From assembly GCA_951406725.2 (NCBI GenBank), contig OX597823.1, forward strand, positions 32,054,001 through 32,118,000: 64,000 nucleotides of DNA. The letters run 5' to 3'. The DNA comes from Octopus vulgaris (Eukaryota). This document shows positions 12,401 through 15,400 of the stretch, piece after piece. The stretch's first letter is position 1; every line of letters starts with the position of its first letter. Made by a program: the position numbers and the translations under genes. The notes beneath the pieces are model-generated. The model was not told the origin of the DNA. It saw nothing but the letters and a program-made list of their open reading frames with translations, and did no database searches.

Positions 12401-15400
12401 CTTCCTGAGATTCGCCAACACTACACCTGATTTTCTCCCCTCCATACACACGCAAGCATGTATCTGACTCATACACTGTTCACTTCCCAGATATTTGTAC
12501 ATTACTGCATATGCATTATATGCACTTTTGACAAGTTGTGGTGCACCTGAGCACTGTATACAATAATTTCATTATTATTTTATATATATATATATACCAG
12601 AGTAAGCACATAAATGTGAAACAAGATGGAAAAAAGAGTACTCAAATACCAGAGGTAGAGTAATATGCTTTAATAAAAACGAACAAAAATATCACAAAAA
12701 CTGTTACTCAGAGTTTCACATTCCCATTCGCCGGACAGTTTTGTTTAACATTCTAAACAAAACTGTCCAACAAGCGGGAACATGAAGCTCTGAGTAACAG
12801 TTTTTGTGATATTTTTGCCGCTTTTTAAAATATGTGTGTGTGTGTGTGTACTCTCCATACCTACCTTATCATCATCATCCACCTCTTCATCATCATCATC
12901 ATCATCATCATCATTATTGCTGCTACTCTGATTATTATAACTATAATAAATGAATTTAGACTTTTTAAAAAAATTTTAATACTACTTACAATTCCAACAT
13001 CTGTTGAAGGAACTAAGGAAACATTGGAAATAATTCTGACGATCAAATTCTTTTCTTTAGACAAATGGATCAAGACTTTTGACACTTCCAATCCTCTGCT
13101 GACTGAGATGTTCCAGGCTTTGGAGAGGCGTTGTTCACCTAATTTCTTGGCTTTTACATTATCTGGTATTCTTTGCAACACAATGATTAAATCTTCATCG
13201 CTTCCTTTCTTTAAACGCATATCTACCATCAGATATTGTTCCCTGAAGAGAGTGGTCCATGGTTTCACAATGGATTCAGCTTCAACGTATCCAGTTGTTT
13301 CCAGAAGAATTTCTGGTCTCTTCAGACCAACAATACTCTTGATCTAGGTATAACAGAGAGGAATAAAACAATTTATTTATCTAGTGTTTTTTTTTAGTTG
13401 CTTATAATTTGGAATAATTGTCATTTATTGAAATTAATCTTAATTAATTGAAATACATGGATAAAATAGTCTATAATTAAAATAATTTATCCCAGATTTC
13501 TTTAAATTTAAGTTTTTGTAGGGTCTAGAATTAGAAATACATGGTATCACTTTGTATGGACATATGGTAGGCTATCTTTCTGTGTGGAGTGGGGATCTGG
13601 GATGTGTGTGTGTATATATGCATATGTGTGGTAAATAAGTATTCAATTGAATGCATAACATGGTATCATACAGTGTGTATCCAAAAGGATACTAAGAATA
13701 ACTACACATGCATTTATAATGGATTCTATTTAATACACATGTTTCTGGTAGTTATGTAAGATAACTCTTATATAATATAACTTCTTCAGTAAACATTTCA
13801 AAATATAAATACTAAAGAAAAATTTGCCCTAAATATAGCAGCTTTCAGAATGATCATAGACAACCTGCCGTATAGCAGAGAGGATGAGGGATATTGTGAA
13901 ACTCCTTTCCATAACACTCTAGCCTGTATTTGCTTGGACAATATGGTTTAACATAACAAGGATAATAGTGGAATGCTTTGCAGGACCCTAAAGAGAAAAA
14001 TTCTGGTTAAGTGGATTGCCACAAAGATATGACTATGATAGGTTCTATAAGCATGTAATCGACAACTGTCTGTGTACATGTGTGCGCATGTATGCATATG
14101 TGTGTACTTGTGGTGCTGGGGTTACTACATGTGTGTGTGTGCAGTGTATGGATGTATGAGTGTGTACGTGTGGGGTGTACATGGGGGAGTGGAGGTAGGT
14201 AATTCCTTGTGCATTTAGTTTTGCTACAGTAAATCTTTACAAACAGCAAAGAATTGATCAGTAAGGAATATTTGTCCCCATAGAAATTTAGACTGTGCCA
14301 ACATAGATGATCTAAGACTTTATTTCTGTCAGTAATTCTTATACATTATTTATATTATTTACATTTGACAGATATTTGTCCTCATCTTGTTTGTTGTTAA
14401 CACAACATTTCATCTTGGGGAAATTTCGAACCTGGGTTCTCATTCCTAAGGTATTTTTCAATGTTGTTGTTATTATTATTATTATTATTATTATTATTAT
14501 TATTATTATTATTATTATTATTATTATTATTATTATCATCATCATCATCATTATTATTCTTATTATTCAGGTTACTGCCTGGAATTGAACACAGGTATAT
14601 GGTGTAGTGGTTAAGAGCATGGGCTACTACCCCCAAGATTCCGAGTTCGATTCCAGGCAGTGACCTGAATAATAATAATAATAATAATAATAATAATAAT
14701 AATAATAATAATAATAATTATTATTATTATTATAATAATAATAATAATAATAATAATGATAATAATAATAATAATAATAACATCGAAAAATACCTTAGGA
14801 ATGAGAACCTAGGTTCGAAATTTCCCCCAAGACACCTGATGAAGGCTGGAGAGTATATCAGCCGAAACGTGTTAACAACAAACAAGATGAGGACAAATAT
14901 CTGTCAAATGTAAATAATGTAAATAATGTATATAATTCCTCATCTCTTAAATATAGAACTGTAGTAATTCTTATGTTTAACATACTTCGCCTTTTTGAGT
15001 TAGTCATCCTTATTTTGTATCAGTATCTTAATTGTATAAAGTGGGTGAGCTGGTAGAGTCATTAGCATTCCAGGCAAAAGGCTTAGCAGCATTTCAGCCG
15101 TCTTTACATTCTGAGTTCAAATCCCACTAAGGTCGACTTTGCCTTTCATCCTTTAGGAGTTGATAAAATAAGTACCAGTTAAATACTGGGGTTGATGTAA
15201 TCGACTTACCCCATCCACTCCCCTGGAATTGATAGTTTTGTGCCAAAGTTTTTGAAATCAATATCTTAATTATATAGAAATATTTCTGTTGACTTACATA
15301 ATTGCGTTTTGCAGGTGTTTGAACAGAAAGAGAGTTGAAAGCAATGAAATATCCTGATGGTCTGAACACCTGGATGCTTGCAATTGGAGTTACACTGGCA

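Follow-up and report, generated by a model that had tools for sequence, protein, structure and literature searches.

Short SINE-like insertions in the octopus genome as pLTR copies of a Penelope-type element with a tRNA-derived head and a probable internal promoter

EN+ Penelope-like elements (EN+ PLEs), such as Penelope of D. virilis and Poseidon_Ac (PAc) of the anole, carry a single ORF with a reverse transcriptase (RT), followed at the C-terminus by a GIY-YIG-type endonuclease (EN). They also share a minimal type I hammerhead ribozyme in the pLTR with the ORF starting at it, two 3' end points that give rise to a tail, 5' truncation, and inverted or tandem arms (PMC11167929, PMC8557442, PMC4209133; published systems are described here from the accessible parts of the cited papers). 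A promoter derived from a small RNA and of the Pol III type, proposed to come from an inserted SINE, lies in the terminal repeat of TRIMp3 elements (Cassandra, Helenus, Ajax); these are non-autonomous LTR elements with PBS and PPT, and their autonomous partners are argued there to depend on Pol II (PMC10886601). The schistosome repeats Sm-alpha and Sj-alpha combine a tRNA-related head with a hammerhead, high copy number and apparent Pol III transcription, and are described as non-coding, SINE-like and often tandem, with no partner named in the accessible text (PMC2770079, PMC6765202). Finally, short hammerhead units related to pLTRs make up animal non-LTR retrozymes (PMC7229834; bioRxiv 10.64898/2026.07.22.740005) and the non-autonomous Chlamys/MRC1 (PMC8557442).

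The element described here differs from the EN+ PLEs in that its pLTR starts with a tRNA-derived A/B-box segment followed by (AAT)n. Unlike the promoter of TRIMp3, this head sits in the repeat of a protein-coding PLE, and unlike that of Sm-alpha and Sj-alpha, the octopus ribozyme is of the minimal PLE type and lies inside a coding frame. We read the copies in the window (the whole stretch of 64,000 nt of Octopus vulgaris DNA that was analyzed) as short insertions of the Penelope/Poseidon type, whose pLTR opens with a tRNA A/B-box segment that likely acts as an internal promoter setting the RNA 5' end; we give this reading a probability of about 0.6. The ribozyme, tail, inversions and TSDs are textbook features of Penelope. 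What is unusual is the tRNA-derived segment opening the pLTR, together with the 5' stops at its edge, and a recurrent deletion at the predicted cut site, which goes unmentioned for PAc in the accessible part of its description (PMC11167929). The features of the window insertions are as follows.

14331 to 14342, forward strand: left TSD of 12 nt, overlapping the end of the inverted arm
14340 to 14590, reverse strand: tail-less inverted pLTR arm, comprising the body with a damaged hammerhead, (AAT)n and the 3' end of the head
14591 to 14668, forward strand: tRNA-derived pLTR head, with tRNA +1 at about 14593, A box at 14600-14610 and B box at 14643-14654
14669 to 14780, forward strand: (AAT)n microsatellite
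14801 to 14803, forward strand: ATG of the Penelope ORF frame, which is broken further downstream in the 14339-14962 copy
14831 to 14873, forward strand: type I minimal hammerhead, missing the three nucleotides that lie 5' of the predicted cut
14874 to 14962, forward strand: 3' part of the pLTR and tail, coding for the ORF N-terminus and containing both 3' end points of insertions
14963 to 14974, forward strand: right TSD
45215 to 45468, reverse strand: tail-less pLTR arm, hammerhead with G12A
45479 to 45522, forward strand: opposite short arm with tail
48453 to 48515, reverse strand: short arm with tail
48517 to 48649, forward strand: tail-less arm, hammerhead at 48544-48589 with G12A
59658 to 59740, reverse strand: tail-less inverted arm, 3' half of the hammerhead intact
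59739 to 60045, forward strand: upstream pLTR with head, (AAT)n, ATG at 59884, hammerhead at 59913-59958 (G12A) and tail
59884 to 60117, forward strand: open frame of 78 codons that spans hammerhead, tail and the beginning of the ORF; its product shares 44% identity with the N-terminus of Penelope protein P0019
60046 to 60120, forward strand: first 75 nt of the Penelope ORF past the pLTR, followed by a deletion of about 2.2 kb
60119 to 60393, forward strand: downstream pLTR, with head from the hairpin edge, hammerhead at 60274-60316 with the 3-nt deletion, and tail

An earlier note on this DNA had read these copies as a SINE/retrozyme hybrid mobilized by Penelope. Much of its description was borne out. 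The A box TGGTGTAGTGG is present at 14600, 59743 and 60131, and the B-box-like motif at 14643, 59786 and 60174. The window copies follow the layout of (AAT)n and then GACAC-CTGATGA-A-GGCTG..CAGCC-GAAA-CG-TT-GTGTT, G12A occurs in three of them and the 3-nt deletion in two, and at four window loci an inverted arm is found with the tail confined to one arm. The order of (AAT)n and hammerhead was right, but the two are not directly adjacent, as about 48 nt including the ORF ATG intervene; at 14811-14822, a second B-box-like motif lies between this ATG and the hammerhead. Similarly, the 5' CAGG holds for the window copies but not family-wide, being a copy-level change where most copies read CACGGG. 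Five window loci had been counted; since 60046-60120 is the Penelope ORF start, the copies at 59738-60043 and 60121-60393 are parts of one internally deleted pLTR-ORF start-pLTR insertion (59657-60393), which leaves four insertions.

Searches of the 2.8-Gb genome led to an autonomous element, and the apparent SINE of head, (AAT)n, hammerhead and tail is almost certainly the pLTR of this RT- and GIY-YIG-bearing Penelope. The element is a unit of about 2.9 kb, in which an ORF with RT and a GIY-YIG-type EN is followed by about 30 nt, the tRNA-like head, (AAT)n, the ATG, the hammerhead and the tail. The EN C-terminus lay just upstream of the head in 2 of 30 loci selected on the body. When 30 loci were selected with the EN piece, a head detectable by BLAST followed directly after the stop in 28 (one being the query's own locus); in the remaining two, one head was internally deleted and one locus was cut short. 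Loci selected on RT (n = 30) reached the ORF end in 20 cases, 19 of them with a head. Mobilization by a Penelope RT/GIY-YIG protein, as the note had proposed, is supported, and the 3' half of the copies matches this PLE pLTR and not a LINE tail. A separate SINE/retrozyme hybrid with a borrowed Penelope end, however, did not survive: the head stands directly after the autonomous ORF stop, and the body codes for the ORF N-terminus.

The RT region matches RVT_1 (E 5.8e-8). The EN piece gave no direct match to Pfam; it is 71% identical to protein P0097 and aligns with P0066, a protein annotated as PF01541 GIY-YIG, at E 3e-11. DKG and C-x-C..H..H motifs are present. A single ORF with RT and C-terminal GIY-YIG, as in EN+ PLEs, is therefore found, albeit in copies that are all degenerate. 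From the ATG ahead of the hammerhead, the reading frame continues across ribozyme and tail to enter the ORF, and its 78 residues at 59884-60117 match the P0019 N-terminus with 44% identity (E 4e-12); in PAc, too, the ORF start is placed at the hammerhead (PMC11167929, accessible part). Two loci, L091 and L092, each hold a degenerate ORF of 2.3-2.5 kb, with the order inverted pLTR piece, direct pLTR end, ORF and full pLTR in L092. An intact full-length copy with a head at each end did not turn up, and the best open frame reached 569 aa. Same-strand hammerheads 3-5 kb apart in L153 and L154 were considered as full-length elements and turned out to be separate short insertions. The element belongs to the EN+ PLEs. 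Its clade is probably Penelope/Poseidon; the linker feature of this clade was not seen in the linker on reading by eye.

Genome-wide, 848 exact matches to the intact 46-nt hammerhead were counted and none to its reversed control, and the hammerhead descriptor matched once in 15 shuffled 64-kb windows, which argues against a chance occurrence. The earlier note had taken the intact core for a consensus only; of 105 arms chosen without regard to the ribozyme, the core is preserved in 49, and core, stems and CG palindrome are all preserved in 29. By motif and stems, the predicted hammerhead of the pLTR is of the minimal type I, as the note had proposed and as in EN+ PLEs. Rfam, named in the note as a check, returned no hammerhead match and no tRNA match either. 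Fold z-scores of single hammerheads were not significant. The double-hammerhead fold (-22.3 kcal/mol) lies above the dimer minimum (-29.2 kcal/mol), so that folding alone does not support cleavage as a dimer. The copies form one family with post-insertion decay. Penelope hammerheads show low activity in vitro.

The likeness of the head to a tRNA is weak but present, which qualifies the earlier description of it as tRNA-like. ARAGORN called no tRNA gene in it, while its local score against tRNAs of its own genome was 59, with 500 shuffles reaching at most 54, and nhmmer on the head at 14606 gave a tRNA likeness at E 0.08. The head is collinear with the own-genome tRNAs, a comparison set of few isotypes that does not fix the parent tRNA. 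Its cloverleaf is lost, and its A and B boxes agree with the consensus at their commonest bases. The tRNA-derived head with A and B boxes of the SINEBase definition (PMC3531059, accessible part) is thus present. The 3' structure is not that of a tRNA SINE: in place of a LINE-partnered end with a simple-repeat 3' tail, the copies finish in a PLE tail and have their simple repeat inside. No free SINE bearing the same head was found among 60 head-selected loci, 51 of which have the body downstream, the remainder being mostly truncated or interrupted arms. The head may derive from a simple tRNA SINE, (AAT)n tail included, that inserted into the pLTR. The (AAT)n itself contains 3' ends of LINEs, which we take to be R4/Dong-like by motif, in L009, L024, L029, L106, L113, L115 and L169, and those of another short repeat in L020, L030, L177 and L195; the microsatellite is thus a landing site for other elements.

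To locate the 5' limits of insertions, we used 90 of the 100 listed places with an exact hammerhead (30 loci, 60 stretches) and dropped eight in which another element lay in (AAT)n or between the arms. For the resulting 82 uncensored insertions, with four short head remnants placed by eye, the furthest 5' point fell in the body in 10, in (AAT)n in 6, in the inner head in 14, at the head edge in 43, in the next 36 nt in none and in the ORF in 9. Among the insertions that reach the 5' edge of the head, 43 of 52 stop inside a 27-nt zone there. An independent set selected on the head (60 of the 100 listed exact-head places, including two near-duplicate pairs and one ORF-linked locus with a local rearrangement) had 49 of 60 starts within 9 nt, with 19 at tRNA -1/+1 and 14 at the fold-back position. 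Furthermore, L146, L387 and L390 begin 5' at the head edge and extend across hammerhead and tail as far as the ORF start, the structure expected if the template starts at the head and extends into the ORF.

An ordinary Penelope with a dead SINE as a passenger in its 3' UTR could produce much of this pattern, with cDNA fold-back at the hairpin and trimming at its loop setting the ends and slippage on structured RNA causing the cut-site deletion; we consider this unlikely. The pile-up zone is spanned by a hairpin of -9.6 kcal/mol, one of the strongest that the element has and equalled by only one site in the ORF, which clearly drives fold-backs, whose junctions are common there; loose ends occur at the same place too. 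The lost cloverleaf also fits a passenger. Against it, ends without fold-back stop there as well (41 of 47 anchored arms), a hairpin of -9.2 kcal/mol around ORF position 955 shows no comparable pile, with the caveat that the ORF 5'-end samples are biased, and the A and B boxes agree with the consensus at their commonest bases. Three RNA-seq runs from one study showed equal strands, no piles of starts or ends and mostly reads less than 95% alike, against a reference that contained no tandem junction; the missing start piles would suit a passenger, but these data are uninformative either way. The most frequent differences in the RNA reads over L040:1180-2000 were A>G and T>C, a pattern that editing of inverted arms in double-stranded form could leave and that is not separable from copy differences without matched DNA.

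Taken together, the 5' pile-up probably marks the start of the RNA, and the tRNA-derived A/B-box segment is likely the internal promoter of the element; in D. virilis Penelope, promoter and start site likewise lie inside the pLTR (PMC2377424, accessible part). With 5' ends at the edge of the tRNA head, the likely RNA start, most copies look like SINEs. Pol III is a tentative candidate for the polymerase. The absence of T4 runs was set aside as evidence for it: shared T3 sites in the ORF extended to T4 in 0 of 11 cases (P ~0.05), G runs behaved alike (0 of 10), and a synonymous shuffle of L224 gave no depletion of the Pol III terminator (T4). For translation, an extra Pol II transcript is conceivable.

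The structure of the insertions is that of EN+ PLEs, with partial-tandem pLTRs, an inverted 5' arm and a tail of 30-40 nt at one end. TSDs of at least 9 nt, with a mode of 12-13 nt, flank 43 of 96 pairs compared with 5 of 1,899 mismatched controls. Of 125 pairs, 96 carry the tail on a single arm, and the two 3' end points of insertions are about 40 nt apart. Head-to-head arms are frequent, and an inverted partner lies upstream at 54 of 90 loci, in agreement with the Penelope-style inversions and tail noticed earlier. Deleted pLTR-ORF start-pLTR tandems are the commonest form among 30 loci selected on the ORF start, and their junctions vary. Outside CpG sites, copies diverge by 4.4% from the commonest base. 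An exact match to the 46-mer is found in just 3 of 170 unbiased arms, giving a very rough family size in the tens of thousands of arms. For the head, 1,427 exact 25-mers were counted, compared with 724 for the stretch that precedes it; after a rough correction for retention (15/116 and 24/56), the ratio of short to ORF-linked copies is about 6 to 1.

This excess of short copies, and their start at the tRNA head, would also be expected if the pLTR had given rise to an independent master family, a Pol III SINE/retrozyme mobilized in trans by the Penelope protein. We regard such a family as very improbable. It would account for small tandems with a repeated junction, as in L134 (four units) and L125 (three), but only five exact matches to the repeated junction under test were counted, all of them on a single contig. 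Between 64 ORF-linked and 127 short-arm heads, every head column has the same commonest base except a CpG column at the hairpin loop. Rather than a separate non-autonomous family with its own master, as tRNA SINEs form, the head is thus part of an autonomous element and lacks diagnostic columns. In addition, solo pLTR copies lack the first 172 nt of the ORF that the PAc template needs (PMC11167929, accessible part). The deleted tandems (L134, L125, L142 and window 59657-60393) do look like a starting point for retrozymes. Unlike retrozymes, the octopus copies are mostly dispersed monomers or head-to-head pairs, and each tandem has its own junction, none having been amplified into a family; tandem units each with a type I hammerhead are found at a few loci and do not characterize the family. 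The element is SINE-like in output, yet it is neither a SINE nor a retrozyme. The tandems of L134:1250-2210, L125 and L142 comprise 2-4 units with hammerhead, tail and 70-165 nt of ORF start and resemble nascent retrozymes, and all four units of L134 carry the N7 A variant.

The second unusual feature is the loss of exactly the three bases 5' of the predicted cut, which affects 31 of 208 arms chosen without regard to it. At 74 ORF sites sharing this 2-nt microhomology geometry, such a loss was seen 3 times in 3,301, so that the deletion is about 160-fold above matched sites, which speaks against the passenger account. It showed no trend across divergence tertiles (9/69, 9/69 and 13/70), which cover a narrow span of ages, and is found with either N7 variant. 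In head-to-head pairs, the deletion was present in both arms in 3, in one in 10 and in none in 25. The corresponding counts for the N7 T/A variant were 13, 5 and 23, i.e. concordant (arm discordance of deletion versus N7, Fisher p 0.011). Thus, N7 is inherited while the deletion is independent between arms, which indicates that it arises anew around integration. Stem I and the reading frame survive this loss; stem III and the cleavage triplet do not.

Loss of a 9-nt tandem unit is likewise discordant between arms (58/12/1), and deletions in the AAC repeat reach up to 11/227, so slippage can mimic part of this signal. Inspection of the cleavage site for a spike of 5' truncations revealed none. 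In the PAc study, insertion in vitro persisted with mutated ribozymes, cleavage being dispensable for it, and cleaved reads were not found (PMC11167929). Passage over a cleaved template would account for where the loss lies. On balance, we lean slightly towards ribozyme cleavage as the origin of the deletion, which is possibly a footprint of cleavage in vivo.

Under the promoter reading, and by analogy with PAc (PMC11167929, accessible part), the RNA would start at or just before tRNA +1 of the upstream pLTR and continue into the ORF. The RT would bind just inside the ORF and prime internally at the tail; PAc primes internally, and its template needs the beginning of the ORF (PMC11167929). Running off the RNA 5' end after about 300 nt, the RT would leave SINE-sized copies and fold-backs at the hairpin adjoining this end, and re-priming would create pLTR-ORF start-pLTR tandems. 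The hammerhead may cut some templates, with rejoining or an RT jump via the 2-nt microhomology losing 3 nt. The most extensive version combines a Pol III-made template from a captured tRNA promoter, tens of thousands of SINE-like copies without a SINE, and a deletion that records cleavage in vivo and its crossing by the RT; we think it rather unlikely that all of this holds.

If true, a cut-site deletion in about 15% of arms would offer a genome-only test of cleavage for any high-copy PLE family, and a protein-coding retrotransposon whose repeat holds a promoter of the tRNA type would extend the TRIMp3 idea to autonomous elements. A Penelope run-off product can resemble a tRNA SINE and may receive that label in annotation, a point of relevance to SINE counts in animal genomes rich in repeats. 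A tRNA head joined to a hammerhead is already on record for schistosome Sm-alpha (PMC2770079, PMC6765202, accessible parts). In the accessible literature, we found no report of a tRNA head in a PLE pLTR; Repbase, Dfam or the supplement of PMC13282606 may list the family.

The closest protein relatives share 57-71% identity, and none was found in viral contigs. Of 79 metagenome loci, 29 with a match close to the ORF end were scanned; a regular expression detected a hammerhead-like core in 18, and none of the 29 had an A and B box pair in its 3' region by the same type of search. One metagenome locus, L243, holds an intact Penelope unit of 2,791 nt, in which A/B-box-like motifs and AATAAT precede the hammerhead (L243:2500-2730 and 5290-5520) and the ORF ATG abuts the hammerhead core. 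It was rejected as a second tRNA-headed PLE, its tRNA likeness being non-significant (E 3.2) with no Rfam match, and so was L247, where the tRNA match lies outside the element.

Other repeats in the region show related arrangements. At window positions 15843-16292 and 490-836 lie long palindromes with hammerhead-like cores of other sequence and no tRNA head by eye; in all probability they are pairs of inverted pLTRs from other Penelope families. More palindromic repeats arranged head to head are located at 55216-55501, 28514-28922, 37731-38062, 55853-56435 and 12684-12817. An abundant tRNA-like short repeat at L153:4100-4620 has two copies placed head to head like Penelope arms, and other tRNA-headed repeat families occur in the window at 27071-27130, 25282-25675, 57538-57928 and 10384-10799.
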